Shown here: positions 22,361 through 57,853 of the stretch, piece by piece
Layout of the letters: each line of letters begins with the position of its first letter
How positions within the stretch are numbered: the first letter of the stretch is position 1
From: a virus
Direction: 5' to 3' (one strand)
IMG/VR virus record: IMGVR_UViG_3300035698_025127
Span: 55,933 to 119,932 of that record
Length of the DNA: 64,000 bases
The notes under the pieces: generated by a model
What the model was told of the DNA's origin: nothing
Seen by the model: the letters and a program-made list of their open reading frames with translations, nothing else
Databases searched by the model: none
Made by a program: the position numbers and the translations under genes

Positions 22361-22364
22361 TGAA

Positions 22365-40510: not shown

Positions 40511-41287
40511 TCAGAGCTTTGGTAAGCCGGATACAATCTCCAAGACGCGGGCGGGCTTTACACCACGATACAGAATCATCTCGCGATTACATTCCGCGTA
40601 ATGTACAGCCCAAGTCATAGCCTCAATATACTTTTTCCCCATTTCGGAAGCCACAGGCAAATGGTCTAAATTGCCCGTATAAATTTTCTATTCTTTGCAA
40701 TAGTCAGCAGCCTCCTTAATAAACATTTTTGCAATTCTCAAGCCAATATTTCGGCTTCCACTGTGCAACATTACCGAAAGTTTCCCATTGCTGTCTTTTT
40801 GCAATTCGATAAAGTGGTTTCCGCCACCCAAAGTACCAAGTTGCGAACGAGCTTTCTCCGGCCATTCATTATAGTCTCTATGGCCAAAGAATCCACGGAA
40901 AACCTTTTCAAATTCGTCTTCAAGCGCTTCAGGCATTTTATCCGAATGGTCGTGGCCTGCGAACCCAACAGGAACATTCAAATAGACTTCTTCGATAATT
41001 TCCTGCACATCTACCGAATCAGCGTCGAGGTCCGTCAGGGCCCACGCCATCCCGCAACCTATGTCTACCCCTACTGCAGCCGGGACAACGTTCTCACGGC
41101 AGGCCAGGACTCCACCAATGGGCATTCCCATACCGGGGTGACCGTCGGGCATCAACGCAACGTGGTGAAATGCATCGGGCAGTCGAGAAAGGTTCCCCAT
41201 TTGTTTTGCAAGGTCGGGATGACCATAATATTCATTTTCGGGAACCCAGATTTTGATGGGCACGCCACCGGCAGTATATTCAAACAT
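40511..41287 (-). pseudogene. rtcB: RtcB RNA ligase, nonsense-interrupted and C-terminally truncated
   Basis: MPDGHPG.GMPIG, VGVDIGCG, LGTLGGGNHFIE, HSGSR; in-frame TAG at 40690-40688, then YIEAMTWAVHYAECNREM; C-terminal half absent. Confidence 0.85.
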
Positions 41288-42729: not shown

Positions 42730-43098
42730 ATGAAATTGATAAGATTTTACATTAGAAAACCAAACGGAACTTTGCTAAATGGATTTCGGGTAAAGGGGCC
42801 AGAGTGTCCGATACTAAATACCTTACTTTATATTGATTGTTTAATGGGGGTGGGAGGACTATCCTTTGACGAATCGGCTCGACATGCTATGACAAAGATT
42901 AGTCGTGCATATGTTTATATAGCATTATATAAATTACCCGGCAATTATAAATTGTTTCAAGATATATTTAAAGGGATTACAGATACAGAAATAAAGTTAA
43001 CGAAAAAATATAAGAAAAGATACGGACATATAATGCGTAACATAATACATAATACATGGTCTTGGTCCCTGAAAATGTCCTATTTAGCACGCCAATAG
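42730..43098 (+). CDS. paralogue-array protein
   Basis: ILNTLLYIDCLM...YVYIAL. Confidence 0.6.
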   Translation: MKLIRFYIRKPNGTLLNGFRVKGPECPILNTLLYIDCLMGVGGLSFDESARHAMTKISRAYVYIALYKLPGNYKLFQDIFKGITDTEIKLTKKYKKRYGHIMRNIIHNTWSWSLKMSYLARQ

Positions 43099-43122
43099 AC
43101 TACAAAACTAGAAAGAAGCTTC

Positions 43123-43608
43123 ATGAACTTTAGAAATAATTTCTATAAAATGCCGGATAGCTCGACTGTTACTACAGGCGTTATTGTGCCGGGGTTGACA
43201 TATCTAAATGCTTTTATTTTGATCGAAATGATAATGGCACGTGACCATTCTCTGGAATATTCAGTAAAATATGCTCGCAGATATTTTGCAAGAATCAATA
43301 TGTATAAAGCATTGTGTAAATTCGATGATCACCCGGATATACTAGACTATTTAACTAATAACATGGATCCTTTTGTACAGTACCGTTGCATAAAAGAACA
43401 CAAAGAATTATTTGACAATATGGTTTCTGAAATACAAACCCATGCGGATAAAATGGCGCTTAATCGTTTGCTCATGAAAATGAATAATCTTAGAGAATCA
43501 AGCTCATATTATTATACTGCAGGTACATGTGGAACAACAATGGCAACAATACCGACAACAACATCAATTACTTCAGATACAATAATAACTAATAATAGGT
43601 ATAGATAA
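43123..43608 (+). CDS. paralogue-array protein
   Basis: LNAFILIEMIM..HSLE...MYKAL. Confidence 0.6.
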   Translation: MNFRNNFYKMPDSSTVTTGVIVPGLTYLNAFILIEMIMARDHSLEYSVKYARRYFARINMYKALCKFDDHPDILDYLTNNMDPFVQYRCIKEHKELFDNMVSEIQTHADKMALNRLLMKMNNLRESSSYYYTAGTCGTTMATIPTTTSITSDTIITNNRYR

Positions 43609-43958
43609 TGTTAGATTTAAGTATTTATGACAAATACGAGACTATACCGTGGCGCATATTATGTTTATTGGCACAATATGACCAAAATATTGATAAACTA
43701 CTGTCAATTCCCGATCTTATAAACTATTTATATGCACAGAATATTCATTATTCCATGATTTTTATTTTTTTGGGCATTTTTCGTCAAGATATTAGAAATT
43801 ATATTATCGCAACAGAGGATTATGAATATTTATTTTCCAATGTAAATGGTACCTGGGCGCCAGTAGTCAGACAATACTGGAAGACATATGTGCGAATAAA
43901 TATTGAAGCTGATACTGGTTTGCCACTAGTTGATTTAGACTATTTAGGGGGGATTTAA
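43608..43958 (+). CDS. paralogue-array protein
   Basis: ILCLLAQYD...DLINYL. Confidence 0.6.
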   Translation: MLDLSIYDKYETIPWRILCLLAQYDQNIDKLLSIPDLINYLYAQNIHYSMIFIFLGIFRQDIRNYIIATEDYEYLFSNVNGTWAPVVRQYWKTYVRINIEADTGLPLVDLDYLGGI

Positions 43959-44314
43959 TGTCAATATCTGACATGAGAATGGAAATGATACGCAAAGTAA
44001 AGTGGATAGATATATATTTATCTGACGATGCGCCACCAAGAAGTTTTCAAAAACTTTATGATACCTTAGATATATGTTATTTGTTATTTGCGTTTGATGT
44101 TTTAGACAGAGAAGATTATCCTCGCTCTCTTATCGTTGACATTATAACTACTTATCTTTTAGTTCAGCCGATATTGGCTCATTTTATCTTTGCAGAATGC
44201 TTTGAGCTAATAAGTATTGATGAAATTAAGAATATTGATCCTTTTGATTCAAGTTGTGACGATCAAATTGATCTTTTTCGGAAATATTTATGTGAGGTAA
44301 ACGGTGTTACGTGA
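43958..44314 (+). CDS. paralogue-array protein
   Basis: ICYLLFAFDVL..DYPRSLIVDII. Confidence 0.6.
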   Translation: MSISDMRMEMIRKVKWIDIYLSDDAPPRSFQKLYDTLDICYLLFAFDVLDREDYPRSLIVDIITTYLLVQPILAHFIFAECFELISIDEIKNIDPFDSSCDDQIDLFRKYLCEVNGVT

Positions 44315-44657
44315 AATGTGTCCGATAATAGTTGAATCACGTCATTCCGTTGGCGAATATTTACAATATACGCATGCATTTGAAATACTCTATATAATGG
44401 ATCATTTAATTGATATATACGGGTATACAGAGAGTCTTGAAAAGTGTTTTTATTATACGGAAAATATTCATCCCAGAATCCTCTGCAAAGCCTTTATGGG
44501 ACTATTGCCAGACCTTGAATATACTTTGCTAGATAAGCCCTTTGCGAATACGCTAGAAAATGTTATTCAACTTAAATCAAGCAATCTTATCTGGAGTATC
44601 GGATATAAAATTATATCTAAATTAGACAAGGAACTAGATAATGCCAAACCTATTTAA
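44304..44657 (+). CDS. paralogue-array protein
   Basis: AFEILYIMDHLI. Confidence 0.55.
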   Translation: MLREMCPIIVESRHSVGEYLQYTHAFEILYIMDHLIDIYGYTESLEKCFYYTENIHPRILCKAFMGLLPDLEYTLLDKPFANTLENVIQLKSSNLIWSIGYKIISKLDKELDNAKPI

Positions 44658-45071
44658 TGTTCCCTTTTGTTATGCATATCCTCCTGATGAACGCAATATG
44701 TGTGCACAAATTAGCGAGTATTTAACACGCGAAATATTCCCAAACTGGGAAGTTTCAAGCCCTCTTAGAGATCAACACCATATTATATTAAGAATATTAA
44801 TAGCATATAATTACCTCAAAGAACAGAAATTTTCAGCAAACGACATAATATACTATATACTTCGTCAGGAAAATCACACAACTAACACAAAAGAATTGCT
44901 ATATTTTACTATAGGTACAATAGACCGCGAAATATGTTTAGACTTGAAAAAAACAATATAACACACTTTTCTTACAAAAATTTACTATTTAACGAAAGGC
45001 GATGTATTAGTATATTTCGTCAAATAAGTATGGATATAAGTCTACATGACCAATTGGAGAGATATGAATAA
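44641..45071 (+). pseudogene. paralogue-array protein, frameshifted at an A7 run (44947-44953)
   Basis: ILRILIAYNYL..FSANDIIYYI; one extra A extends the frame to TAA 45071, overlapping the CYTH start. Confidence 0.55.
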
Positions 45072-45555
45072 TATAGAAATAGAACGACGTTTTTTTGTCA
45101 AAAATGGTATTTTGCGCAAAGAAGATTGCCCATTTTATTTTGAAATAATACAAGGTTATATAGGTACTATACAAGATATAGACAAAATAGTCAGAATACG
45201 CAAAACTTTAATGTATTGTGGCGACAAAATACATGAAAATTCTTATTTAACAATAAAGGGTGACAAAATAAACGGCAAAGGGTACGAACTCGAAACGCGA
45301 ATACTTGACAATGTAGACGATTTTTTCAAATTATGCCCAAAAGGGACTATTTTGTCAAAAACTCGGCTAATTGTACCATATAAAAACAGACATTTTGAAG
45401 TGGATTTATTTCATGGCAAATACGAAAATTTAATAATAGCCGAAATAGAGCTAGATGATATTAATGAAGACGTCGAACTGCCGTCATGGATAGGCCAAGA
45501 AATAACAAATAATAAACGATTCTCTAACTATAATCTAGCAATGGCACAAAAATGA
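45064..45555 (+). CDS. CYTH-domain (triphosphate tunnel) protein
   Basis: EIERRF, QGY, VRIR, LTIKG, ELE, K.R, FEVD.F, AEIEL, EIT...SN. Confidence 0.88.
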   Translation: MNNIEIERRFFVKNGILRKEDCPFYFEIIQGYIGTIQDIDKIVRIRKTLMYCGDKIHENSYLTIKGDKINGKGYELETRILDNVDDFFKLCPKGTILSKTRLIVPYKNRHFEVDLFHGKYENLIIAEIELDDINEDVELPSWIGQEITNNKRFSNYNLAMAQK

Positions 45556-46049
45556 ATATAACTTTTCAACCATTATATGATATATGCCCAGCAGGTGAAG
45601 TTATAGGACTTGAACTTATATTGCCAGGCTCCTTTACGCGCGACATATCAGGGGAAAGATTATGGATATTTAACGAACTAAATGACATAACATTACAATA
45701 TAAAATCCATCCAAACGTACCAATAAGGACAGCATTCTCTATTTACGAAAAAATACCAAATACTTATAATGTGCTAGTAATGTTTGAAACACTAATAAGT
45801 TATGGGTATACAACACAAAACGCAATAAGATTTCTACAGAAATATATGCACCCAGTATCAATATATATAGCATTACATGCAATAGTAAATGAATACCTAC
45901 TATATAATGTCAAAAAGGATGTCCCATCTGCCTGCATGAACAAAAATTCGAGAGCAATCTATAGACGAGACCACCACTCAATTGTAAATAGATACGGAAT
46001 GCACAACGACCTGCGAAAAATTGCTAATAAAAGAGCGCTAAACAAATAA
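45552..46049 (+). CDS. paralogue-array protein
   Basis: YNVLVMFETLI..GYT..NAIRFL...IYIAL. Confidence 0.6.
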   Translation: MNITFQPLYDICPAGEVIGLELILPGSFTRDISGERLWIFNELNDITLQYKIHPNVPIRTAFSIYEKIPNTYNVLVMFETLISYGYTTQNAIRFLQKYMHPVSIYIALHAIVNEYLLYNVKKDVPSACMNKNSRAIYRRDHHSIVNRYGMHNDLRKIANKRALNK

Positions 46050-46051
46050 GG

Positions 46052-46447
46052 ATGCAAATAATGTCAAGCGACATATACCGCCTAAAACAAATAACTAAGA
46101 AATGCCTGCAAAATAATCAATTCATCAACTTTATGATCCCAGACATAAAATCTTACCACATGAAATTTATACTAAGAATATTACTGGCTTATGAATACTT
46201 AATGACTAAAAACTATCCGCCCGAAGTAATAGTAAACTATATAATTTATCAGGAAAAAAGTTCGAATAATATATACGAAATAATATACCACACTATAAGA
46301 CAAATAAATAATGAAGTAAAACAATATTTACTAGATAATTATACAATACGAAGCAAAAAATATCTTGAATATCATATACGTCAACCCATCATACAACTTA
46401 ACAGTATAATTGGATTAATCATACATAACACCATTCATCACAAATAA
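46052..46447 (+). CDS. paralogue-array protein
   Basis: ILRILLAYEYL..NYPPEVIVNYI; close to 44641. Confidence 0.65.
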   Translation: MQIMSSDIYRLKQITKKCLQNNQFINFMIPDIKSYHMKFILRILLAYEYLMTKNYPPEVIVNYIIYQEKSSNNIYEIIYHTIRQINNEVKQYLLDNYTIRSKKYLEYHIRQPIIQLNSIIGLIIHNTIHHK

Positions 46448-46518
46448 AAATTGACCCCCCCTCCGCAGTGTGGGAAAAATCGTTTGTTATTTGTAGGTAC
46501 CATGTATAGCATCATATA

Positions 46519-46566
46519 CCGACTTATGGTCCGACTTATGGTCCGACTTATGATCTGACTTGATTG
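46519..46566 (+). repeat. 12-bp tandem repeat CCGACTTATGGT (three near-perfect copies plus one degenerate)
   Basis: copies at 46519, 46531, 46543, 46555. Confidence 0.9.
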
Positions 46567-46635
46567 AAAACGAAACTCGGAAAAAGAGACAAAAAAAAGT
46601 CCTTTCAAAAAAAATTCTGGGAAATTTTTTTAGAC

Positions 46636-46664
46636 TTGACATTTTTCTTGTTTTGTGTTATACT
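46636..46664 (+). promoter_or_regulatory. sigma70-type promoter
   Basis: TTGACA-17-TATACT. Confidence 0.8.
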
Positions 46665-46688
46665 AGTTATAACTTGAAAGGAATATTT

Positions 46689-47156
46689 ATGGTAGAATTT
46701 TTTATGATGCTCGGCGCGGTTATGCTCCTATATGTCGGCATAATACTATTTTCAATTGTATTTTTAATAATCATAAACTTTATAGCGCGCCTTGAAGCGA
46801 ACAAAAAAAGATACATTTATTTGTGCAATAGCAAACTAATTATTACTGACCATTGGTTTAAGAGACCACTTTTTTATACTGGCAAGCGTATTCATTGGCC
46901 TAAATTACATGCTAACAGCCAAGAGCAATTAGTATTTACGTTTGTTCATTTAATGGAATTCGGCATAGATTATTTTATAGACCATTTAATGGGCAGAAAA
47001 ACAGCATATTTTATGATTGGCGGGATTAATATTAATATTGGCAACTATATAACAAGATATAGTCAATATCATTATGCTAGTTATCTAGTATGTTATTCCA
47101 AACTAAATAATATTTTAGCTAATCTGGAAAAGGAATCGGAATATGATATTATATAG
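46689..47156 (+). CDS. paralogue-array protein with N-terminal TM
   Basis: TM, then RYIYL...WPKL...QLVFTFVHLM. Confidence 0.55.
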   Translation: MVEFFMMLGAVMLLYVGIILFSIVFLIIINFIARLEANKKRYIYLCNSKLIITDHWFKRPLFYTGKRIHWPKLHANSQEQLVFTFVHLMEFGIDYFIDHLMGRKTAYFMIGGININIGNYITRYSQYHYASYLVCYSKLNNILANLEKESEYDII

Positions 47157-47727
47157 CATAAAAAAACCTTTTGGGGAGCCGGTCATACAACGATGTTACA
47201 AATATTTTAACTTTGTGAAATTCATGGCTTTTTTGGGTCTTGTAAGGTATGTAAATGTCTTATATCCGTTCCCTGACGGCACGAAACATGTAAAAAATAA
47301 CAAAGAAATTAGGGCATATATGGTCTATTATGCTTTATTATATGAAAAATTTGACAGACGTTCCATTATTGAATTTCTTATTGTTTGGAATAATTTCGTA
47401 TATTATGATCCTTATTTGATATCGAACTTATATTACAATATAGGCGCATTCGATGTGAAATTTAAGACTGCATTTGAAGAAGTCGTGGGTGGAGACACTT
47501 ATTTACGAACTATTTTACGTTCTTTTCATTTTTCAGAACATAGTTATTTGTGCGCACAATCCAAAATAGTGCGAGAAATTATGACTGAATGTGAAATGCC
47601 GTATCATATGTCACGCTTACAAATAAATTTGTATCTCTTCTGTTGCGAACAGGAAAAAAAGACTGGTTCGAGTGGAGTAGGCGACAGAATTCTGATAGAT
47701 TTCCTTATTATGGCAAAGAAAAAATGA
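47143..47727 (+). CDS. paralogue-array protein
   Basis: IRAYMVYYALL.EKFDRRSIIEFL. Confidence 0.6.
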   Translation: MILYSIKKPFGEPVIQRCYKYFNFVKFMAFLGLVRYVNVLYPFPDGTKHVKNNKEIRAYMVYYALLYEKFDRRSIIEFLIVWNNFVYYDPYLISNLYYNIGAFDVKFKTAFEEVVGGDTYLRTILRSFHFSEHSYLCAQSKIVREIMTECEMPYHMSRLQINLYLFCCEQEKKTGSSGVGDRILIDFLIMAKKK

Positions 47728-47734
47728 TTTTTTC

Positions 47735-47763
47735 TTGACAAATGAGTGACTATGTGCTATAGT
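47735..47763 (+). promoter_or_regulatory. sigma70-type promoter
   Basis: TTGACA-17-TATAGT. Confidence 0.8.
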
Positions 47764-47804
47764 ATTTATATTGAGAAGAATCTAAACTAACAAAGGACTA
47801 TTAA

Positions 47805-48275
47805 ATGTCAAGATACATAGAATTTACAAGATTGGGGCGCATTGAGGAAACTGACGAATGCATTTTAAATAAATACTCGTATGATCCCAATGTTGATCCG
47901 TGTAAACGATGCATGTTAGTTAATCCATTTACATATATTATTAGGCCTACTGCTCCAGACATGTTTTCTATGGAACATACAGTTGGTAAATCAGGTCATA
48001 AACTTGACTTACTTATTATGTTAGAAAAAATACTTACAAAATTGCCAGAGCACCAAGGTTTTGACAATTTAAGTGTGGTAAATTTTTTCTGCAATCGACT
48101 TGTACGAAGCGCCTCACTTACACGATACGTGGTATATGATTGGCTAGGCTTACTAATGGCAGATGTTAAACATTTTTGTTTTTATGGGGATGAACCAACT
48201 AAATATTATTCTGCTATCGCAAACGAAACAAAAAATTATTTGTCTTTGCTAGATCAGAGGAACATAAAAAAATGA
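47805..48275 (+). CDS. paralogue-array protein
   Basis: LDLLIMLEKIL...FDNLSVVNFF. Confidence 0.6.
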   Translation: MSRYIEFTRLGRIEETDECILNKYSYDPNVDPCKRCMLVNPFTYIIRPTAPDMFSMEHTVGKSGHKLDLLIMLEKILTKLPEHQGFDNLSVVNFFCNRLVRSASLTRYVVYDWLGLLMADVKHFCFYGDEPTKYYSAIANETKNYLSLLDQRNIKK

Positions 48276-48604
48276 ATAACAAAAAAATAATCACAATAAT
48301 GAATAATACCTTTTTAGTTCCCGATATTAAACTCGATTTAGACGGAATTAGGTCGATATTTGACAGACAAGGATTTAATCCAAACATCAAATTGCTTATG
48401 TTATTAGATGTTTTTTTGACCGCAACGAATGACGATGAAAAAAAGGTAACAACTTTAATTGCTTCGACTTGCGGAATTGCGAACTTGCAGATCGCAGATA
48501 TAATTAAAACACTAAAAGGGAAAAAAATGAATATGTACTATAACCGTGACTCGTGGCCCATATTTTTTGCTATTAGTGACTATATAAAGGAAATAGAATT
48601 ATGA
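48272..48604 (+). CDS. paralogue-array protein (divergent)
   Basis: IKLLMLLDVFL. Confidence 0.5.
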   Translation: MNNKKIITIMNNTFLVPDIKLDLDGIRSIFDRQGFNPNIKLLMLLDVFLTATNDDEKKVTTLIASTCGIANLQIADIIKTLKGKKMNMYYNRDSWPIFFAISDYIKEIEL

Positions 48605-48990
48605 TTGAAACACTTCAACACGCAAAAGAAAATCCAAGTAATCTTTATGTAGTTGTGACTGCAAGAAATAACATTATTAACTATGTAACTTCAGCAGGTT
48701 CTTCAATTAAACTTGAACTATCGAAAATGAATGTCGTATATCCAGTACTTACAGATAATATCAACTGTGCTAATTCGTATTTACTAGATGTATTATTTAT
48801 ACTTTTGTTTTTAGTAGAACGTCCAACGTTACGCAATCAAGCTATTGCAGAAAAAATATTATGTAACCCAAACAGTTTGAGTGTGCGAGGATATAGCTTT
48901 GCAATAACAAGATTTAACTTGTATGCAGAAAAGTTTTACGATATTGATGATTTTTGTTCCCATGTTTTGAAAGGAAAAAAACTTAGATAA
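48601..48990 (+). CDS. paralogue-array protein (divergent)
   Basis: LLDVLFILLFL. Confidence 0.5.
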   Translation: MIETLQHAKENPSNLYVVVTARNNIINYVTSAGSSIKLELSKMNVVYPVLTDNINCANSYLLDVLFILLFLVERPTLRNQAIAEKILCNPNSLSVRGYSFAITRFNLYAEKFYDIDDFCSHVLKGKKLR

Positions 48991-49166
48991 TGGACAAGAA
49001 ATGCTAGTTATTTTAAGCAACAAACATCGGGCTGTCACGGGCCCATGAAATACCTTATGTATTTTGAGGCTTTAGCGCACTTAGAGGTAAAGGTAGTGAA
49101 ATAGCCCTTTGGGGTTAGGCCCATTTCCGCCGTCAATTTGTAATTATTAGTAAATAAGGAGAATAC

Positions 49167-49601
49167 ATGAAACATTACTATATAAAAAGTATGCCTGACG
49201 GCAGTATAAGATCCGTATCTAACTATAAATACGACAAAAGTTCATATTATATTGTAAAAAAAATCTCCCGTCTTTATGGTGCATTTAAGGCAAAACATTA
49301 TGATCTTAATTATGTCCCTAATTTACTTGAAATATTAACATGGGTAGAACAAACCATAGAATTTTGTCCAATGGGCAAACAATTGAATTTTCTTAATTCG
49401 ATTGGATATGATATAGCTTATCTTGTGAATATTTTGAGTGTTTTGTTTCCCCGAGAAGCTCTTATGATTTCTCAATCGCATATGAATTATTTTAATGAGG
49501 CTATACTAATAAGGTGGGAATCTTCTCTTTTTGTATATCATAACAAGATATTATGCGATATAAAAGAGGATATAGAATGGCGTTTAGGAGAAAGTTCATG
49601 A
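49167..49601 (+). CDS. paralogue-array protein
   Basis: HYYIK..DGS; LLEILTWVEQT...QLNFL...NILSVLFP. Confidence 0.65.
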   Translation: MKHYYIKSMPDGSIRSVSNYKYDKSSYYIVKKISRLYGAFKAKHYDLNYVPNLLEILTWVEQTIEFCPMGKQLNFLNSIGYDIAYLVNILSVLFPREALMISQSHMNYFNEAILIRWESSLFVYHNKILCDIKEDIEWRLGESS

Positions 49602-50059
49602 ATTATTACTATATAGTGAGTGCTCGTGCATATGGTTTAGTAAAAATAACTCAGTATGAACCCGACTTTGGCAGTGATTATATTGTAACAAAGATAATTA
49701 ATCTTCGTGATGCATTCCGTTCAATAAAATCTGATATGTGAGTTCCAGCCGACTTAATAATTTTATTATCACTTATAGAACAGACGACGTCAATATTTTC
49801 ACCCAATCGGCAAATGCATTTTCTTAGTTCGATGGGATATGAAAAAACATATGTTATAAATATTTTGAGTATTTTATTCCCTATTGACGACCTTTATCTT
49901 ACTAGTGATGAAAAACATTCACTTGCGAAATACAAAGGCGAGGTGGAGCCTTTTAATCTTTTAGATATATACAATAAAATGCTACATAATATAAAGAATG
50001 ATATAAAATGGAATACAGCAATGTCAAACTGGAATAATTGGGTTAAAAATCGAAAATAA
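49598..50059 (+). pseudogene. paralogue-array protein interrupted by in-frame TGA (49739-49741)
   Basis: frame continues after TGA as DLIILLSLIEQT...QMHFL...NILSILFP, matching 49167. Confidence 0.75.
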
Positions 50060-50062
50060 TAC

Positions 50063-50110
50063 TTGACATATTGCGTTTTTTATGTTATTATGATCATAAT
50101 GAGTTGTTTA
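50063..50110 (+). promoter_or_regulatory. promoter plus CATAATGAGTTGTTTA leader
   Basis: TTGACA-17-TATTAT; near copy at 51735. Confidence 0.7.
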
Positions 50111-50274
50111 TGTTAAAAAAACGCAATAAAAGGTTAATTTATGAGGAAAGTGGTTTTATATCGAAACGAGAATGCGGAGAATATCGGAAAACGTCTAAAG
50201 TTTTTTCTGACCCCGGCAGAAGATGGGGGCATTGAAGGTTGGGGCCTTATTAAAAGCTCCCATATGGGTTTATT

Positions 50275-50796
50275 ATGTTAATTTATGCATATCGAAACAG
50301 CTTGACCAATAAAATACTCTTTTCTGGTTATTCGCCAGTTAATGGGTTTAAACGCGTGTCCCCGGGTTTACCACTCATTGGGGCAAAAAGATTTGGAAAT
50401 TCCCACCTTAATCATATATTAGACTTTCTAATTCGATATAACACATATTGTAATTATTTGACAGATAACGAACTAATAAATTATTTTGTAGAAAACCATA
50501 CTTATGTATGTGGCCCCGATGTTAGGTCATATAATAGAAATTCTTTGGAAATTATACTTATGGAAATAAAGGCCGGCCGTGTTCTGCCGCCTTCAGAGGG
50601 AGGAGATATGCAATTTCGAGATAGTTCGCCTCTTGTTAAATCATACCGAATTTTACATTATATTCGTATACTGTTACAACAAATAATGGGCTCGGATAGA
50701 CATGAATGCATTAAAGTACGCTATATAAACGACGATACCAAAGAAGGATGGGTAATTATTCGTAAAAATAAAAGTGGCAATGCATTTAATGAATAA
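50275..50796 (+). CDS. paralogue-array protein
   Basis: MLIYAYR; ILDFLIRYNTY...TDNELINYF. Confidence 0.6.
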   Translation: MLIYAYRNSLTNKILFSGYSPVNGFKRVSPGLPLIGAKRFGNSHLNHILDFLIRYNTYCNYLTDNELINYFVENHTYVCGPDVRSYNRNSLEIILMEIKAGRVLPPSEGGDMQFRDSSPLVKSYRILHYIRILLQQIMGSDRHECIKVRYINDDTKEGWVIIRKNKSGNAFNE

Positions 50797-51223
50797 TTTT
50801 TACTATATAAAAAGATTTGAAGACGGCAGCATGAGTAGGCCCGAACAACATCGCCCTGACAGTTTTAATCAACAAGTGGGTTTATATCTATTTACAATAG
50901 AAAAAATACCCATAATCCACTGTTTTTATGCTGATGCTGATTTTGATACTGGTGATGAAAGAGCCTCTTGTGCTTTTCTGGAATTGCTAACATGGATAGA
51001 ACTCACAATGTCATTCTCTAATCCTCGAGTGCAGATGACTTTTCTTGTCCATAAAATCGGTTTTGATAGGCATTGTATTGTTAGGATACTAGAGGCCTTA
51101 TTTCCCGGTCAAAATAGTATAGCCCTTGAATCACTTGAATATGCAAAAGATCGCAGCGGCATATCAAATGACCTCGCCAATGCATTAAATGATTTTAAAC
51201 AAATAATTGAAAAGCGAAGTTAA
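50789..51223 (+). CDS. paralogue-array protein
   Basis: FYYIK..DGS; FLELLTWIELT...QMTFL...RILEALFP. Confidence 0.65.
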   Translation: MNNFYYIKRFEDGSMSRPEQHRPDSFNQQVGLYLFTIEKIPIIHCFYADADFDTGDERASCAFLELLTWIELTMSFSNPRVQMTFLVHKIGFDRHCIVRILEALFPGQNSIALESLEYAKDRSGISNDLANALNDFKQIIEKRS

Positions 51224-51225
51224 AA

Positions 51226-51729
51226 ATGCTAATATATATATATAGAAGAACCAATAGCGAAATATTTGTTTCAAAAAGTCAGCCACACGTTCTTACATCG
51301 TCGTCAAAAACAAAATTTGTTTGTTCAATCCCATATATCTCAAAAATAACTCATAGTGGCATGTCACAAATATTAATCTTTTTGATATGGTACGAATTAT
51401 TAAGAAATACCTGTACTGATTATGAAATTATTAATATGTTTACCAGAATAATTGATACTATACCCGACCACGACAAAAATTTTACCCAATTCACCCTAGG
51501 ACAAATAATTTATAACATAAAAAACCCTCACCCCCCTCACAGAATTTATTCGAAACAAGAGACGCTCGAAAGTATAAAATTTAATAAATCATATTGCTAT
51601 TTAGACTTTACTAATATAACTTTAAGACAAGTATACGGGCTCGAAAGGAATGGGGTGCCGTTTATTCATAAAGGCGAAAATTATCTCTGGCAGGTAGGGT
51701 TTACGGAATATCCACACTATAGCGTATAA
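51226..51729 (+). CDS. paralogue-array protein
   Basis: MLIYIYR; ILIFLIWYELL...TDYEIINMF. Confidence 0.6.
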   Translation: MLIYIYRRTNSEIFVSKSQPHVLTSSSKTKFVCSIPYISKITHSGMSQILIFLIWYELLRNTCTDYEIINMFTRIIDTIPDHDKNFTQFTLGQIIYNIKNPHPPHRIYSKQETLESIKFNKSYCYLDFTNITLRQVYGLERNGVPFIHKGENYLWQVGFTEYPHYSV

Positions 51730-51734
51730 AATAC

Positions 51735-51784
51735 TTGACATATTGCAAGTTTTATGCTATTATAGTTTCATAATGAGTTGTTTA
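51735..51784 (+). promoter_or_regulatory. promoter plus CATAATGAGTTGTTTA leader
   Basis: TTGACA-17-TATTAT. Confidence 0.7.
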
Positions 51785-51811
51785 ATGTAATAATTGTGAA
51801 AAGGCACTTAA

Positions 51812-52153
51812 ATGCATTATGTTTGGTTAAAAAACGACAGAATTCAATTAAATCATAGTAATTCTATAAGGCCGCCTAATTCTGTTCTTCTTGTTAAATC
51901 AACAGAAAGCATTTCGAGAAATGATATTCTTTTTCAGGTTCTTACATATTTCGAGTGTCTTTTTGGTAATTTTTCACAAAAACAAATTACCCGTTTTTTT
52001 GATGAAACTTCGGGATATCACAAAACATTTATAACTAATGCATTATTGCCAAGTGTTCTGGGCCGTGTTCGCGAAGGGGTATTACTTACTTCAAAATATG
52101 ACAACAATATATTAGTAAAAGCAAGGCTTGAAATAGAAAGGTATCTGGGATAA
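51812..52153 (+). CDS. paralogue-array protein
   Basis: LFQVLTYFECL..NFSQKQITRFF. Confidence 0.6.
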   Translation: MHYVWLKNDRIQLNHSNSIRPPNSVLLVKSTESISRNDILFQVLTYFECLFGNFSQKQITRFFDETSGYHKTFITNALLPSVLGRVREGVLLTSKYDNNILVKARLEIERYLG

Positions 52154-52162
52154 TGTTGATAT

Positions 52163-52555
52163 TTGTTGATAAAAAAACCAATAACATTGGGTTTTCAAGT
52201 TATTCTGGGGTTTGGGCAAGACCCATCATATCCCAAGCTCGAATGGCCTGCAATTCAAGGTACTGATATAAAAGACCAAGATGATATAGCTATAAAAATA
52301 ATACTTGTATTAAGCTTTTATGAATTTATTAGTGAACATTTTCCCGAAGAAATGGCACTTCGTTCACTAAAATGTAATCATGATGAGCATTTTGTCTATA
52401 AAGTATTTTCACTTATAGATGACAGTTTGGCAGAACGTTTCATGTATAACAATGAAGTCGGATGTGAGTCTAATCGCGAAATAAGATTTTCAGCTTCTAA
52501 CCAAGTAAAGTTATTAAAAATAATAAGAAAAATAATGAGGAATTTATCATTATGA
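52163..52555 (+). CDS. paralogue-array protein
   Basis: WP; IILVLSFYEFISEHFPEE; IDDSLAERF. Confidence 0.6.
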   Translation: MLIKKPITLGFQVILGFGQDPSYPKLEWPAIQGTDIKDQDDIAIKIILVLSFYEFISEHFPEEMALRSLKCNHDEHFVYKVFSLIDDSLAERFMYNNEVGCESNREIRFSASNQVKLLKIIRKIMRNLSL

Positions 52556-52920
52556 GCAAAATATATTTATCGAAAAATAACAGGATTCATGTACGAATGA
52601 AGCCAACAAATATATGTGGCCCCGTATTCGATTGGCCCCATCTTCGCATTATTGGCTGTCTAGCAACAGAATGGACATTTCACATTTTAAGAGGCTATGA
52701 ATTTATTAGTAAAAAATTTTCTGAGGAATGTGCCTTTCATTTTTTAACACGCACGTATGGATTTTTCCAGTCGGCGAAAATCTTCACGATTGTTGATATG
52801 AATGTTGCTCATAGATTTAGTTTGTTTCACAACGCGCAATTACCCATACTTGTACTTGGAAACAAAGATTTAAAAATTCAAGCTATAATTAAAGACATTA
52901 GGATGAATTTAAATGCATAA
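52552..52920 (+). CDS. paralogue-array protein
   Basis: WP; FHILRGYEFISKKFSEE; VDMNVAHRF. Confidence 0.62.
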   Translation: MSKIYLSKNNRIHVRMKPTNICGPVFDWPHLRIIGCLATEWTFHILRGYEFISKKFSEECAFHFLTRTYGFFQSAKIFTIVDMNVAHRFSLFHNAQLPILVLGNKDLKIQAIIKDIRMNLNA

Positions 52921-53350
52921 ACGTATGAGAGCATATGCAAGACACAACCCCCATACCAACCGGGACGAAATTCATTTTGGGAGACACGATGACAAAGAAC
53001 CGAACCATCGGATCCCCGGCACTCCCATAGTTGATTGGGTTAAATTTCGCATTAGTACAAATTCGTGTACTTGCGAACATACATTAAAATTGCTTATGTT
53101 TTACGACATACTAATTAGTAATTTCCCTGAATACTTGGTATTTGAAAGTATATATCTTAATATTGGATTTAAATACGCATTTTCTATTTTAGGACCTCTT
53201 TCCCGTATTGATTCATCTATTGCCTGTAGATTCTTCGATACAACTCAAGGTAAACACATGTTAGAAAGTTATGACCCTTATGATATTTTGCCGGGCTATT
53301 CCCATTATATAAGAAATATTATACAAGATATAGAAAACAGAATATTATGA
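52913..53350 (+). CDS. paralogue-array protein
   Basis: LKLLMFYDILISNFPE; IDSSIACRF. Confidence 0.62.
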   Translation: MHKRMRAYARHNPHTNRDEIHFGRHDDKEPNHRIPGTPIVDWVKFRISTNSCTCEHTLKLLMFYDILISNFPEYLVFESIYLNIGFKYAFSILGPLSRIDSSIACRFFDTTQGKHMLESYDPYDILPGYSHYIRNIIQDIENRIL

Positions 53351-53766
53351 TGTATTATTATGTTTTGAATACAAATGGCAATCTTAAAGTGAGTGCAACA
53401 AAACCGCCGATATCAGAAAATTATGTGACATTGCCTGTAAGGCTAAACCGTGCCAATTTAATAAAAAATATCGAAACAAAGCAAGCACGGCGTATTGCCG
53501 GAAAATCTCCAGATAATGATAATACCTGGCAAATGGTTATATTATTACTTGCATGTTCCGACTTATTAGGTGATAATTTTTCGCTGGAAAACATTGCTAA
53601 TTATCTAAATAAAGAGTGTTGTTTAAGAAATAGTTTTGTCGAAATGATAATAAAAACAGCATTACAAGAGGAATATATAGTAAAAGCGGATATACAATGT
53701 GAATTTGACATAAAATGGCAGAATAAAATTATGGAACAAGTTGCTCGAATAGAGGAAAATATTTAA
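53347..53766 (+). CDS. paralogue-array protein
   Basis: YYYVL; VILLLACSDLL.DNFSLENIANYL. Confidence 0.6.
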   Translation: MMYYYVLNTNGNLKVSATKPPISENYVTLPVRLNRANLIKNIETKQARRIAGKSPDNDNTWQMVILLLACSDLLGDNFSLENIANYLNKECCLRNSFVEMIIKTALQEEYIVKADIQCEFDIKWQNKIMEQVARIEENI

Positions 53767-54055
53767 TGTATTATTGCTATATTCTAATTAGGAGCAAACA
53801 AAATATATCGAAGTCCCAACTGGTAATATCTGTATTGCCTTGTGGGAATTGTGATGATGGTGCTTGCCCATGCAGCAGTGTATAAAATGCTCAATAATGG
53901 GCCACAAATAGCCCTTGTGGCCACGAGTACTGTATTAGGCATACTATCACCATGTCGGCCCTGGCTGGCGCCCCGACCTGTTTTGTATTTGCCATTACTC
54001 AGTGCAAATTGATGGGACACGTTTTTGATAATACGGATACAGACGAATTTTTTTC

Positions 54056-54084
54056 TTGACAAATGACAAGAAATATAGTATACT
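54056..54084 (+). promoter_or_regulatory. sigma70-type promoter
   Basis: TTGACA-17-TATACT. Confidence 0.75.
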
Positions 54085-54129
54085 GTTTTTTAGACCTAAA
54101 CAATAACTAGAAAGAAGAAATATTTCATT

Positions 54130-54882
54130 ATGAAACAAAAAGTGGAAACTATTAAAAGCAGAATTGATTATCTTCGGAAACTCAATCTTCTGGCGGCGAA
54201 AAATGTCAAAACTATTAAATCCATCGGAATTAATATCCTGAAGACGGGCCGCGAACTGATTGCAGAATATCCCAAAGACAATGATGTTGTTGTTTCCGGT
54301 CGTAATATTATCGGCGAAGCAAATCGTCAATTTCTCCGAAAACGCAGTGCAGCCCCCGGGGGTCGCGCCATTGCTCTGGCTTATGCATTCACCCGCGGGA
54401 AACGATATAAAACAGTAGAGCCCAATACTGCCCAAATGGGCGTTGTTGCCCTGTCCGTTTCCATTGCCAGACTTGTTGGCGCCACTCCGGAATGTATCGT
54501 ATTCTGGTTTGAAAGTGATAAAAACATGTACGAAATTATTCCGTTTGAACATCAGCTTACACAATTCAAGCAACTTGCCGTCAAAATTGAAACTGCTCAG
54601 GTTAAATTTGAGGTCACAAAACGTACATGGAAAAAAGCAAAGAAAAAATCTGAAGAAGATGAGGGTAACGAAGAATTAAAATCGCAGAAAAAGAAAAGTT
54701 ACAAAAAATATCAAAACGCAAAATATAAGTTGGAACAACTTGTTGCAAATTATTTAAGAGCAGATATGGTTACCCCCGATTCTCTTTTCTCAGAATCTGA
54801 ACCGGTTGACAAAGTTGCTCAAAAAGCAAAGGCAAAAGTTATTGACAGCTTAGTAACAAGAAATACAAAGGTTGCAAAGTAA
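54130..54882 (+). CDS. phage hypothetical protein
   Basis: LAYAFTRGKRY..VE motif, Lys-rich coiled coil. Confidence 0.7.
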   Translation: MKQKVETIKSRIDYLRKLNLLAAKNVKTIKSIGINILKTGRELIAEYPKDNDVVVSGRNIIGEANRQFLRKRSAAPGGRAIALAYAFTRGKRYKTVEPNTAQMGVVALSVSIARLVGATPECIVFWFESDKNMYEIIPFEHQLTQFKQLAVKIETAQVKFEVTKRTWKKAKKKSEEDEGNEELKSQKKKSYKKYQNAKYKLEQLVANYLRADMVTPDSLFSESEPVDKVAQKAKAKVIDSLVTRNTKVAK

Positions 54883-55139
54883 TGTCACACTCGATCAAAC
54901 AAGTCAAAAAAGACAAATGGCAGATTTTTGGGCACAAACACGAATCTATTGTACAGTCTTATATTGTTATTGAAGACGATTACTGCCGAATTAGTATTAT
55001 CGGCGGCAATCCAAAGCAGAAAAAGGATGTGAGGTGCGAATTAGATAAAAGTTCTGTCATTAGAGGCTATCTATCATATATTATGTATGCAATTCGCAAG
55101 CTCAATGATATGGAAAAAAAACTTGACAAAACAGGATAA
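54882..55139 (+). CDS. hypothetical protein
   Basis: 85 aa, coupled. Confidence 0.55.
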   Translation: MSHSIKQVKKDKWQIFGHKHESIVQSYIVIEDDYCRISIIGGNPKQKKDVRCELDKSSVIRGYLSYIMYAIRKLNDMEKKLDKTG

Positions 55140-55146
55140 AACAAAA

Positions 55147-56139
55147 ATGATTGTGAGACTGTCCCCCAAAACTCTGCGGTCCTACTGTATGAGAGAAGAT
55201 TTTATTGCAAAATATATTGAAACTTTTGGCAATACACAATATATTTTCCCTTGGGATATTGCTTCTCAATGTTTTTTTCTATCTTCTTCTTTCCCGGATA
55301 TGATGGCAAAACTGCAATTACCTTTCCTGCCCATGGAGAAAACGAATTTAAGAGGGCTGCAAATTTACAATACTATCCTTAAAAAAATTAGAATTACAAA
55401 GTCAAGTTTGGAAAATTCGAGTTTTAGAGAATGTACTTTGCAAAAAGCTGTCTTTAAAAATTCCAACATGGAAAATGTAGACATGCAGAATGCCAACATA
55501 ACTAATGCAATTTTTGATAACACCAATCTTGAAATGTCAAATTTTGATGAAGTAGAAGCCGACAACTCCGAATTTGATTTTTCAAATATTCGGTATGCCA
55601 GTCTTCATGCAGGCGGGTTTAACAATGCATCGTTTAGAAATTGCGATATTTCTTTTTCTGACCTTGGAAACGCAGTAGCTAATCGGTCAACTTTTGTAAA
55701 GTCATATATTAATAATAGTTCGTTTATAGGGACAAAACTTAATAATTTATGTATGCTAAATACCGATGCTGCTCAAAGTAATTTTGAACGTGCTTTCATT
55801 CTGGATGGCAACATAAAACAATCGTATTTCAAAAATGCTGATTTTTCATTCTCAACGTGTAACAGAATTTATTTTCAAGGTTGTGTTCTTCGAGGCGCTT
55901 CTTTTGAATCAGCTACTCTTAATGGGGCGAAATTTGAAAATGTAAATTTTCGTGATGCCAATTTTAATAAAGCTATATTGCGGCGTGCTATTTTCAAAAA
56001 CGAGGATTTAAAGAATGCAGATTTTTCAGGTGCTGACTTACAATATGCAGATTTTAGCGGTGCAGACCTACGCAAGGTAATTTTTAACAGAACAAATCTC
56101 GCAGGTCTCCAATACAATAAATCCACTAAATGGTGGTAA
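55147..56139 (+). CDS. pentapeptide repeat protein (start uncertain)
   Basis: long A(D/N)(F/L)xx repeats (ADFSG ADLQY ADFSG ADLRK). Confidence 0.88.
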   Translation: MIVRLSPKTLRSYCMREDFIAKYIETFGNTQYIFPWDIASQCFFLSSSFPDMMAKLQLPFLPMEKTNLRGLQIYNTILKKIRITKSSLENSSFRECTLQKAVFKNSNMENVDMQNANITNAIFDNTNLEMSNFDEVEADNSEFDFSNIRYASLHAGGFNNASFRNCDISFSDLGNAVANRSTFVKSYINNSSFIGTKLNNLCMLNTDAAQSNFERAFILDGNIKQSYFKNADFSFSTCNRIYFQGCVLRGASFESATLNGAKFENVNFRDANFNKAILRRAIFKNEDLKNADFSGADLQYADFSGADLRKVIFNRTNLAGLQYNKSTKWW

Positions 56140-56251
56140 AGCCGACTTACTTTTAGCTTCTAAAATACAAATGTTACATTATAATATATGAAAAAGAACC
56201 AAAGGCAAAAAGGACACTGAATAAAAAAAATCTTTTTTTGATGTTTTTTTC

Positions 56252-56304
56252 TTGACATTTTTTTTTCTTGTGGTATAGTTAGTCCAAGATTGATTGACAA
56301 ACTA
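56252..56304 (+). promoter_or_regulatory. promoter (16-bp spacer) plus GATTGATTGACAAACTA leader
   Basis: TTGACA-16-TATAGT. Confidence 0.8.
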
Positions 56305-56322
56305 CCTGAAAGGAACTGACAA

Positions 56323-57321
56323 ATGAACGACATTGCAAAAAAAATTATCCCTTATACCTCCAACCTGATGGAAGATTTAACTTTCGGTGTTGAGCTTGAA
56401 ATTTGTCTCCCCCGCAGTGCTAACCTTCGCGACATGATGAAGGATGCCGGCATCCCAAGAAACAAATTTAATTCCACTGCAGATTATAGCAGCCAGGACT
56501 ATGATATATGGCAGGCCAAAAACGATTGCAGCCTGTCTTGTTCCTCCGGCTTTTTCAATATCGAAATTGTAAGCCCCGTCCTTTCCGGTACTGCTGACAT
56601 TGAACTTGTCAAAAAAGTTATCGTATCCATCAAAAAATTCGGCGGTGAAGTTAATGAAACTTGCGGCGTTCATATCCATATCGGTTTTGACGGTCTTGTC
56701 AAACCCGGCAAGTCATTTAACGCGCCGGAACGCACCGCCCTTGTAAACAACCTTGCAGACATTACAGCGGAATTTGATCAGTCTCTTATGCTCATGGTTG
56801 AGCGGGACCGCTGGAGTCAGGCTTGCTGCAGACGCTACAAAGACTATTCGGAACACGAGACTTACGATATGAATCATCAACGCAGTAAACTTGCCTCCAG
56901 AGATTGTGCAGTTGCTTTCGGTTCTCACTCTCAGATTATCAACGCGAAACGTTTCCTGTCTAACTTCGAAAACAAACGAACCATTGAATTTCGCCTCTTG
57001 GAAGGCTGCCTTGACGAAAACAAAGTTGCTGCTTGGATCTGGTTCTGCCAGCGGTTTCTCCATCGTGCATTTAGCACCAAAGTTCGCGCAATCGGCCGCA
57101 CTCGCAAATTTACTGACCTTCTGAGCTTCCTGCGCTGTGACCGTGCCGACGAAAAACGCGGTTTTGATCGCAACGAAACTACCAAGGGTTATGTGGACTG
57201 CCTTCGCAAACTTGCCAAAAAACACAACAGTAGCAAAACCCCTTATTATCGCGCACATTGCAACTTCCACAACTATGTGCGCCCGCCCAAAGCAATGATA
57301 ATCAAAAATCTTGCAGCATAA
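56323..57321 (+). CDS. amidoligase (COOH-NH2 ligase, glutamine synthetase fold)
   Basis: TFGVELE, W....DCSL, EIVSPVL, CGVHIH, TIEFR. Confidence 0.85.
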   Translation: MNDIAKKIIPYTSNLMEDLTFGVELEICLPRSANLRDMMKDAGIPRNKFNSTADYSSQDYDIWQAKNDCSLSCSSGFFNIEIVSPVLSGTADIELVKKVIVSIKKFGGEVNETCGVHIHIGFDGLVKPGKSFNAPERTALVNNLADITAEFDQSLMLMVERDRWSQACCRRYKDYSEHETYDMNHQRSKLASRDCAVAFGSHSQIINAKRFLSNFENKRTIEFRLLEGCLDENKVAAWIWFCQRFLHRAFSTKVRAIGRTRKFTDLLSFLRCDRADEKRGFDRNETTKGYVDCLRKLAKKHNSSKTPYYRAHCNFHNYVRPPKAMIIKNLAA

Positions 57322-57327
57322 AAAATA

Positions 57328-57339
57328 GGGCTTCGGCCC
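57328..57339 (+). other. cUUCGg tetraloop hairpin before an RBS
   Basis: GGGC-TTCG-GCCC, no U-tract. Confidence 0.55.
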
Positions 57340-57359
57340 CACCTTAACGGAGAAAAAAA

Positions 57360-57614
57360 ATGACAAACGCAACTACCAACCCTGAAATCATTTGCGCCGA
57401 AACAGTTAATGCGGACGTAACCGAATACAGTGTACGCCTTGACGGCAAGGATTATGGGTCTATGTACCAAAAAAATAATATGTGGTCATACGATCTTGAC
57501 GCATTAAATGGCAAAACCAGCATAGTCCGCGTATTTGACAATCCTCTGGACGCCGCAAATGACACTATCCGGATCACCAACAAATTAAACGATGTATTCC
57601 ATTTCATGGTCTAA
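57360..57614 (+). CDS. hypothetical protein
   Basis: GGAG SD. Confidence 0.6.
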   Translation: MTNATTNPEIICAETVNADVTEYSVRLDGKDYGSMYQKNNMWSYDLDALNGKTSIVRVFDNPLDAANDTIRITNKLNDVFHFMV

Positions 57615-57622
57615 CCCCCCAC

Positions 57623-57638
57623 AGGGGCTTCAGCCCCT
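57623..57638 (+). other. related hairpin before an RBS
   Basis: AGGGGC-TTCA-GCCCCT then aacaaggag. Confidence 0.55.
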
Positions 57639-57654
57639 AACAAGGAGAATGACT

Positions 57655-57819
57655 ATGGAATATAAGAAATTGGGTTCATGTTGCGAAGCGTCACGGAATC
57701 GAGGTGATCCCATGATCCCAATATTCTCAGATGAAAAAGCGGTAAAACAGTGGGCAAGACGGGTATTTGACCCTTTTTTCTTGACATGTCGAAAATTTTA
57801 TGTTATGGTATATCCATAA
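57655..57819 (+). CDS. small hypothetical protein
   Basis: AGGAG SD; 3' end overlaps the next promoter. Confidence 0.4.
   Translation: MEYKKLGSCCEASRNRGDPMIPIFSDEKAVKQWARRVFDPFFLTCRKFYVMVYP
57781..57809 (+). promoter_or_regulatory. sigma70-type promoter
   Basis: TTGACA-17-TATGGT with extended TG. Confidence 0.6.
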
Positions 57820-57853
57820 CTTATAAACCTGTGATAATTTAACGGAGAAAATT

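Follow-up and report, generated by a model that had tools for sequence, protein, structure and literature searches.

Large phages give sizeable early regions to small proteins without assigned function, and among those early proteins that have been studied, in SPO1 and in T4, some inhibit transcription, division, proteolysis or defence in the host. Two such regions form the background of the present work. [quoted passage not shown] T4-type phages carry, in hyperplastic regions, clusters of ORFans placed behind consensus early promoters that belong to promoter-early stem-loop (PeSL) elements; repeated promoter sequences could act as recombination sites (Arbiol et al., 2010, PMC2839356). The locus discussed here is a row of small genes at positions 42730-53766 of a stretch of viral DNA of 64,000 nucleotides (positions 55,933 to 119,932 of the IMG/VR record IMGVR_UViG_3300035698_025127), termed the window, to which all coordinates refer unless stated otherwise. 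The source genome is a single contig of 119,932 bp, of which the window is the final 64 kb. We understand this array, with somewhat better than even confidence, as an early host-takeover or accessory module made by tandem duplication, in an orphan 120-kb phage of virulent type.

The array is, as the original prediction had it, a single file of small plus-strand open reading frames (ORFs): 25 of them, making 24 genes of 106-194 amino acids, lie back to back over 11.0 kb that is about 92% coding. The number of genes is 24 because an in-frame TGA splits a single gene into the two ORFs 49598-49741 and 49814-50059. Within operons, start and stop codons overlap or lie 2-24 nt apart, a ribosome-binding site is present at most genes, and the minus-strand ORFs of the array, all of 60 amino acids or fewer, are nested in plus-strand genes. 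Probably, we are dealing with five or six operons, with one near-consensus promoter at the head of each. The likeness to the SPO1 module is considerable: about two dozen small genes in 11-12 kb, several operons, strong host-sigma promoters, good ribosome-binding sites, and a majority of genes without recognisable family. Unlike that module, the array finds no DNA match in 50,697 phage records (megablast and blastn), and PHROGs match only two of its 25 ORFs, one of them presumably the CYTH-domain gene described below. The SPO1 module lies in the terminal redundancy, whereas no terminal repeat is seen in this contig, and SPO1 products have measured host effects, whereas those of the array products are presumed from context. 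The genes of the SPO1 module have not, to our knowledge, been presented as a single expanded set of paralogues; the array, by contrast, is dominated by paralogues.

These paralogues, named by their first coordinate, fall into groups. BLASTP separates four: A (49167, 49598-50059 and 50789), B (44641 and 46052), C (50275 and 51226) and D (52163, 52552 and 52913; expectation value E 3e-6 for 52163/52552 and 1e-3 for 52163/52913). The fifth, group E (42730, 43123 and 45552), was missed by BLASTP and was found by Smith-Waterman comparison with shuffles (z 7.3-7.7 for 43123/45552, 4.7-5.4 for 42730/43123). All five subfamilies named in the original prediction are thereby real, and they are interleaved as it had stated, in the orders B-CYTH-E-B and C-A-C. 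Units of two genes seem to have been duplicated, to judge from the repeated orders A-C/A-C and E...B/E-B.

The firmest result is a family that joins several of these groups. A profile seeded on group D, run against the array together with 1,333 controls (1,000 shuffles, 308 other genome ORFs of at least 60 amino acids, 25 reversed sequences), recruited 46052, 51812 and 53347, then 44641, above every control, after which growth stopped. The seven genes so assembled (44641, 46052, 51812, 52163, 52552, 52913 and 53347) are called family S. With each subgroup left out, all seven members were recovered by the profile of the rest (p 0.001-0.032, 1,000 shuffles each). None of the 308 other genome ORFs scored above the best shuffle with the profile of this family, which is therefore confined to the array. 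The paralogues are only about 20-30% identical, yet their hydrophobic core positions are conserved: the family S alignment has 17 class-conserved columns, 15 of them hydrophobic or aromatic, one acidic (after a Tyr) and one polar. What the members share thus resembles a scaffold for folding rather than a conserved interface. Divergence affects the protein along its whole length, the calculated isoelectric point (pI) ranging from 4.3 to 10.0 across the array and taking the values 5.9, 9.8 and 7.1 within group D alone. The proposal of a constant docking module joined to a diversified recognition part is not supported by these observations.

From sequence comparison, we probably have one superfamily, with seven genes as its lower limit, about 15 as its probable size and 20 as a conceivable one. 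The tally stands at seven genes firm (family S), five probable (groups C and E), three suggested (group A), five singletons that are weak candidates, three genes without link (46689, 48272, 48601) and one unrelated CYTH enzyme. The gene content, with p values against the hidden Markov model (HMM) of the seven S members or against profiles with members left out, and z values from Smith-Waterman comparison, is as follows.

42730-43098 (+), 122 amino acids, pI 10.0: group E, probable superfamily member
43123-43608 (+), 161 amino acids: group E, z 7.3-7.7 to 45552
43608-43958 (+), 116 amino acids: weak candidate member, HMM p 0.032, no longer significant on leave-one-out (p 0.14)
43958-44314 (+), 118 amino acids, pI 4.3: weak candidate, HMM p 0.010, leave-one-out p 0.04; z 3.8 to 46052, in register; mid-strictness motif present
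44304-44657 (+), 117 amino acids, GTG start: weak candidate, z 4.2 to 46052
44641-44961 (+), 106 amino acids: family S, subgroup B, BLASTP E 1e-8 to 46052, leave-one-group-out p 0.006
45046-45555 (+), 169 amino acids: CYTH domain, outside the family, internal negative control
45552-46049 (+), 165 amino acids: group E, probable member, HMM p 0.006, leave-one-out p 0.01
46052-46447 (+), 131 amino acids: family S, subgroup B, sole ORF with the strict motif, leave-one-group-out p 0.001
46514-46558: three tandem 12-nt direct repeats, in the gap between operons
46689-47156 (+), 155 amino acids: N-terminal membrane helix (maximum of the Kyte-Doolittle 19-residue window 3.15), no family link, best cross-group z 1.8
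47143-47727 (+), 194 amino acids: weak candidate, HMM p 0.012, lost on leave-one-out; z 3.5 to 44641 across about 50 residues, in register
47805-48275 (+), 156 amino acids: very weak candidate, z 3.0 to 52913, in register; no HMM signal
48272-48604 (+), 110 amino acids: no signal in HMM, leave-one-out or Smith-Waterman tests
48601-48990 (+), 129 amino acids: no signal in the same three tests
49167-49601 (+), 144 amino acids: group A, BLASTP E 2e-10 to 50789, z 27 to 49598-50059
49598-50059 (+), 153 codons: group A, in-frame TGA at 49739-49741
50275-50796 (+), 173 amino acids: group C, probable member, BLASTP E 1e-6 to 51226
50789-51223 (+), 144 amino acids: group A
51226-51729 (+), 167 amino acids: group C, probable member, HMM p 0.012, leave-one-out p 0.008
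51812-52153 (+), 113 amino acids: family S, leave-one-out 18.6 bits against a null maximum of 10.0
52163-52555 (+), 130 amino acids, TTG start: family S, subgroup D, the member modelled with AlphaFold
52552-52920 (+), 122 amino acids: family S, subgroup D
52913-53350 (+), 145 amino acids: family S, subgroup D
53347-53766 (+), 139 amino acids: family S, leave-one-out 9.4 bits against a null maximum of 6.9

The start of the membrane protein is placed at the ATG at 46689, rather than at 46560, because a promoter (P2, below) lies within the upstream extension of the ORF, while a ribosome-binding site precedes 46689. The inter-operon gap that holds the tandem repeats (46448-46635) also carries a run of seven C, and a fourth, looser copy of the 12-nt repeat is found at 53553.

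The original prediction had the array subdivided by at least five sigma70-type promoters, and five are indeed found, all in intergenic gaps, with a criterion of TTGACA-17-TATAAT matched at 11 of 12 positions together with a TG extension.

P1, 42683-42711 (+): TTGACA, 17-nt spacer, TATAGT, TG extension; head of operon 1
P2, 46636-46664 (+): TTGACA, 17-nt spacer, TATACT, TG extension
P3, 47735-47763 (+): TTGACA, 17-nt spacer, TATAGT, TG extension
P4, 50063-50091 (+): TTGACA, 17-nt spacer, TATTAT, TG extension
P5, 51735-51763 (+): TTGACA, 17-nt spacer, TATTAT, TG extension

Aligned, these predicted promoters have in common an A/T-rich upstream tract followed by cTTGACA. The whole 119,932-bp genome contains nine such plus-strand sites, so that the array, with 9% of the genome, holds five of the nine. 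P4 and P5 are duplicates, since they are 83-85% identical over 41 and 26 nt. A consensus sigma70-like promoter with its A/T-rich upstream tract, standing directly before ORFans, recalls the PeSL cassettes, and the parallel to their repeated promoter is the P4/P5 pair of 83-85% identical copies. Unlike PeSL, no stable stem-loop is predicted at the six promoter regions that were folded, none of which did better than its shuffles (z -1.11 to +0.55, 200 shuffles each); nor was a related phage found that would show shuffling, the listed contig pieces of four runs matching the window. A terminator scan gave 7 sites against 6.8 expected, and the candidate late-promoter motif of the genome has no plus-strand copy in the array. 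It is plausible, on the strength of these predicted promoters, that expression is early and driven by the host RNA polymerase. The same predicted promoter type is seen beyond the array at 54056 and 56252 (+), within 54056-58831, where it heads a Lys-rich protein of 250 amino acids, a pentapeptide-repeat protein and two paralogous amidoligases.

How far the common descent of these genes reaches beyond family S is the point on which readings diverge. Profile-to-profile comparison with hhalign ties S to group C (21.2 against a null of 10.7+-1.9, z 5.5, above all 80 column shuffles) and to group E (17.3 against 8.3+-1.7, z 5.4, above all 60 column shuffles). Group A is linked to S only through one of its members, as 52913 and 49598-50059 align with a Smith-Waterman z of 6.1, a value that stands above those of all 2,688 control pairs (at most 5.7); the same member aligns with 51812 at z 3.8, the core being in register. 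For group E, the pair 42730/51812 (z 5.1) likewise has the core in register. The best of the weak alignments also keep the core motifs in register, namely 43958 and 44304 with 46052, 47143 with 44641, and 47805 with 52913. Taken as a set, the 112 pairs of S with non-S genes have a mean z of 0.49 and include eight above 3 and four above 4 (binomial p 1.5e-4 and 1.5e-3), for control rates of 1.35% and 0.43% in 1,632 pairs of array genes with other genes. The array against its own reversal (276 pairs) gives three pairs above 3, none above 4 and a mean of 0.01. True to its role as negative control, the CYTH gene has a mean z of -0.01 and a maximum of 1.1 to the array. The 18 other ORFs gain signal collectively against the seven-member HMM (Fisher p 1.2e-4), six of them at p <=0.032, the remaining 12 giving a combined Fisher p of 0.52; the five singletons owe their candidacy to z values of 3-4.2 or p values of 0.01-0.04.

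Some 22 highly diverged paralogues sharing one helical module had been proposed. Seven of them are firm and wider links exist; the full set is not demonstrated. The assertion that nearly every ORF carries the same motif was too generous. A moderately strict form is present in 5 of the 25 ORFs, in none of 140 other phage genes and 0.10 times on average in shuffles, while a loose form is present in 10 of the 25 (the seven and 43958, 45552, 51226) as well as in 10 of 140 other genes with about ten times the residues (shuffle mean 1.6, maximum 7), these patterns having been written after the data were seen. The Tyr-rich N-terminal strand is enriched as had been noticed (11 of 24 genes against 16 of 140 others), and so is the C-terminal helix of I..DI...L type (10 of 24 against 20 of 140), each of them in under half of the array genes. 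A few small genes outside the array reach z values of 4.7-5.7 to its members (window 23387-23974 (+), C1:435-749 of the genome, and window 153-608, with 49598-50059, 43608 and 44641 as their partners), by chance or as further remote relatives; if they are relatives, the Smith-Waterman control is conservative.

Structure models were made for two groups. AlphaFold2 applied to 52163 with an alignment of seven rows (model m77cfa8fc9ffa) gave a mean predicted local distance difference test score (pLDDT) of 62, rising to 75-81 for core residues 40-98, which are modelled as four helices (40-59, 62-72, 75-85 and 87-98); a C-terminal helix at 111-128 is of low confidence and the N-terminal 35 residues are poorly defined. 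The group A protein 49167, modelled with four rows (m30eef3d69614), has a mean pLDDT of 63, a weak N-terminal hairpin, helices at 53-63, 69-78 and 83-93 that match the aligned core, extra helices, and a long C-terminal helix at 120-141. The order of helices in the two models, which were compared by order and not by superposition, is compatible. Foldseek searches of the S model against PDB and BFVD, and of the A model against PDB, gave nothing above noise (best E 0.49-1.3), and PDB sequence-profile searches were equally mute (best E 0.22 and 1.1). In the ESM Atlas, the best feature score for 46052 (0.81, with an Atlas model of pLDDT 0.46) was within chance, and 49167 had neither a usable match nor an Atlas model.

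Several results weigh against the reading that we favour. The core HMM of family S, which was expected to recover the other members above controls, did not lift any of the remaining 18 ORFs past the top scorer among 170 controls: in the ranking of 188 targets a shuffle comes first at 4.2 bits, the best real ORF having 4.1. Extending the profile with six candidates did not improve the leave-one-out result, and two of the six lost their signal. The comparison of S with A by hhalign is not significant (12.9 against 10.4+-1.8, z 1.4), and the 113 non-S cross-group pairs are not enriched (mean z 0.11, p 0.17). The S and A models are of medium confidence only, they were not superposed, and their fold-search lists have no family in common. 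As for the early module as such, none of the 24 public runs that contain the stretch is an RNA run, and no terminal repeat of 50-1000 nt is found in the contig, whose ends may be arbitrary.

The same results make room for a quite different history, in which the block would be a mosaic of unrelated orphan families (S, A, C and E) and singletons, gathered in an early accessory region by recombination, and in which the likeness beyond the seven genes would reflect only the amphipathic helices of Ile-, Leu-, Tyr- and Asn-rich proteins. This we regard as a possible but distinctly less probable account. It is consistent with the shuffle heading the core HMM ranking and with the behaviour of the 18 ORFs as a set, which outrank all controls (Mann-Whitney p 0.0013) and do so less clearly when compared with reversed sequences only (p 0.07). 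It also agrees with the hhalign comparisons that fail to reach significance, C-A, C-E and A-E besides A-S, with the lack of enrichment among non-S pairs, and with the differing fold-search neighbours of the two models. An HMM of the N-terminal hairpin, tried as a second shared module, was no better than shuffles, and the block does contain unrelated genes, as seen from the CYTH gene and the membrane protein. It fits poorly, however, with S-C and S-E scores above every one of 80 and 60 column shuffles, with a z of 6.1 that no control pair among 2,688 approaches beyond 5.7, with weak links that fall in the same register on the core motif, and with a mean z of 0.49 for S against non-S pairs where the reversed control has 0.01.

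A functional alternative, which appears unlikely, would make of these proteins small nucleic-acid-binding regulators, helix-turn-helix-like or akin to the core-binding domain of tyrosine recombinases, that would reprogramme host or phage transcription instead of inhibiting proteins by binding them. Among the top 50 rows of the group A fold search, 16 belong to the core-binding domains of tyrosine recombinases or of protelomerases; these lie within noise and provide a lead only.

Returning to a duplicated early module, codon usage sets the block apart in part as had been announced. ATA makes up 56% of the 371 Ile codons of the array and 21% of the 753 Ile codons of 32 flanking genes, whereas TTA, also said to be characteristic, barely differs (35% against 30%). 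The ATA share of individual array genes ranges from 25 to 85%, all array genes being affected. Four-fold degenerate sites have A:T proportions of 0.38:0.31 in the array and 0.32:0.34 in the flanks, and the array is enriched in Tyr (6.6% against 3.9%) and Ile (10.9% against 7.8%). The simplest reading of these data is that core genes avoid ATA while the array block does not, and this use of ATA would point to genes that are young or fast-evolving and whose codons are weakly optimised. Elsewhere in the window, some genes, at 1068-2376, 20061-20810, 22215-22820 and 28713-30083, also have 40-55% of ATA among their Ile codons, so that the signature is not wholly confined to the array.

Two genes deserve a separate word. 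The CYTH gene at 45046-45555, of the triphosphate tunnel metalloenzyme type, matches PF01928 in Pfam (E 5.6e-6), and phrog_6660 matches one array ORF, presumably this one (E 2e-18); it shares the ATA-rich codons of its surroundings (18 of 22 Ile codons). In the interrupted group A gene at 49598-50059, the 105 codons that follow the TGA stay open and conserved, and the apparent 72-nt gap after the TGA, when read through with X, encodes the core helix found at this place in the other group A genes. The TGA at 49739-49741 is present in contigs of three sequencing runs (X1, X2 and X3) identical to the window. A form of 153 amino acids, with Trp at the TGA codon, comes from one contig of 815 bp, and may represent a genuine TGG allele or else a gene call on identical DNA with TGA read as Trp. 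Programmed read-through of the TGA is conceivable as well.

Within the searches made, the array proteins have no relative outside this phage population. The family S profile, run with full HMMER against 1.84 billion representative proteins, returned seven matches, all of them the phage's own, and for groups A, C and E word-indexed searches of 5.8 billion clusters yielded nothing but proteins of the phage itself (group A, 5 of 172 candidates; group C, 1 of 115; group E, 3 of 193). For the nine singleton genes the search was confined to Pfam, PHROGs and NCBIfam, with an additional look-up by exact sequence for 47143. That no named family would be recognised is borne out: Pfam, PHROGs v4 and NCBIfam r20, PADLOC not being searched, match only the CYTH gene, together with one weak hit to phrog_9725 (E 0.0022), and NCBIfam r20 by itself matches none of the 25 ORFs. 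A lineage-specific expansion, as first surmised, is thus supported by the paralogue groups, the duplicated promoter, the repeated two-gene orders and the lack of relatives beyond the population.

The 24 runs in which the stretch is present are all labelled as salt lake metagenome and date from 2017-2019. At 90% identity, clusters of array proteins contain 1-5 members, nearly identical and drawn from other assemblies. For runs X1, X2, X3 and X6 (2017-2019), the contig pieces listed have zero differing letters relative to the window, no substitution is listed inside the array, and no clear difference in gene content was seen among population contigs. One X3 contig has a deletion of 1 nt at 44453, which is a frameshift in gene 44304-44657, and a 1-nt deletion compensated by an insertion at 47798-47801, before the start of 47805, is seen in X1, X3 and X6. 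In contigs of 2017-2019, the phage population is thus nearly invariant across the array. Contigs of X1 and X2 diverge from the window after 44458; a joint from 44812 to 49236 and loose ends at 44458, 47763, 50898 and 52357 were noted at 80% likeness, maybe from repeats or other organisms, and are not interpreted. That the ORFs would be decaying or non-functional remnants, with a high ATA content due to lost selection, is most improbable. In its favour are an ATA use widely different from that of core genes, the premature stop of one copy and the frameshift allele at 44453 in one contig. Against it, frames of 106-194 codons have stayed open, closely packed, at about 32% G+C, their starts coupled and preceded by ribosome-binding sites, the hydrophobic core is conserved among paralogues about 20-30% identical, and no substitution is listed in the array in contigs of four runs of 2017-2019.

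The window (about 35% G+C, against about 32% in array DNA) encodes a DnaB-like helicase, a RecA-like protein, a split DnaE and a class II-like ribonucleotide reductase, to which are added a CCA-adding enzyme, an RtcB fragment, a pentapeptide-repeat protein and two amidoligases; it has no tRNA gene. A neighbouring protein of 1034 amino acids had no tblastn match in the 50,697 phage records, the large subunit of the ribonucleotide reductase matched only below 60% identity (27% among the matches listed), and three pattern scans of IMG/VR viral contigs found no relative of the 49167 protein, the 54130 protein or the N-terminal half of DnaE. The RtcB ORF at 40688-41287 (-), of 199 amino acids, covers the N-terminal half only (profile positions 1-207 of 426), the other half not having been looked for, and a pile-up of metagenome contigs at 40805-40839 probably reflects a conserved RtcB motif of other organisms. 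Two long gaps without plus-strand ORF, at 48991-49166 and 53767-54129 (363 nt), are relatively rich in G+C; the former folds at -39.2 kcal/mol, which is not better than shuffles (z -0.78).

We may now picture how a duplicated early module would have arisen and how it might work. The block would have grown mostly through recurrent duplications, both tandem and segmental, with extreme divergence thereafter, from one small ancestral protein made of a variable N-terminal part, a core whose four helices span about 60 residues, and an amphipathic helix at the C-terminus. Helix 1 of this putative core bears h-L-x-h-L-x-x-Y-E-x-L, and helix 2 would start at F-[SP]-x-x-E. The hydrophobic core and the helix caps would have been conserved while surface and charge diverged. 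Host RNA polymerase with its primary sigma factor would transcribe the operons at once, and the products would be small soluble helical binders with diversified surfaces, each engaging a different host or defence protein. From the context we infer an anti-defence or host-takeover role, and with it early timing, binding and an effect on the host. A bolder version, which we put forward as tentative and doubtful, would have one four-helix mini-protein radiating into about 20 tandem copies within a single phage lineage, keeping its core while charge, N-terminal extensions and surfaces were remade, each copy neutralising a different defence or housekeeping target in the first minutes; the ATA signature would then be the mark of fast, weakly optimised evolution.

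Comparable cases are found in the multigene families of large eukaryotic DNA viruses, such as the multigene family (MGF) genes of African swine fever virus (ASFV) and the Bcl-2-like proteins of poxviruses, and in the WY-domain RXLR effectors of oomycetes. Our search of the literature found no account of paralogue arrays in phage early regions, and a limited search cannot show that none exists. The protein families described here are new while this kind of array is not, and we see in it a solid but ordinary example that calls for no new principle. The block nevertheless adds at least four protein families without relative among billions of database proteins, and it provides a clear case of expansion in situ, with a seven-member family, duplicated promoters, apparent two-gene units and one copy with a premature stop. 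A radiation into about 20 copies, if true, would be the phage counterpart of the multigene effector families of eukaryotic viruses and oomycetes. If the copies share one scaffold with diversified surfaces, the array would constitute a compact natural library of binders directed against the cell of an uncultured salt-lake host.

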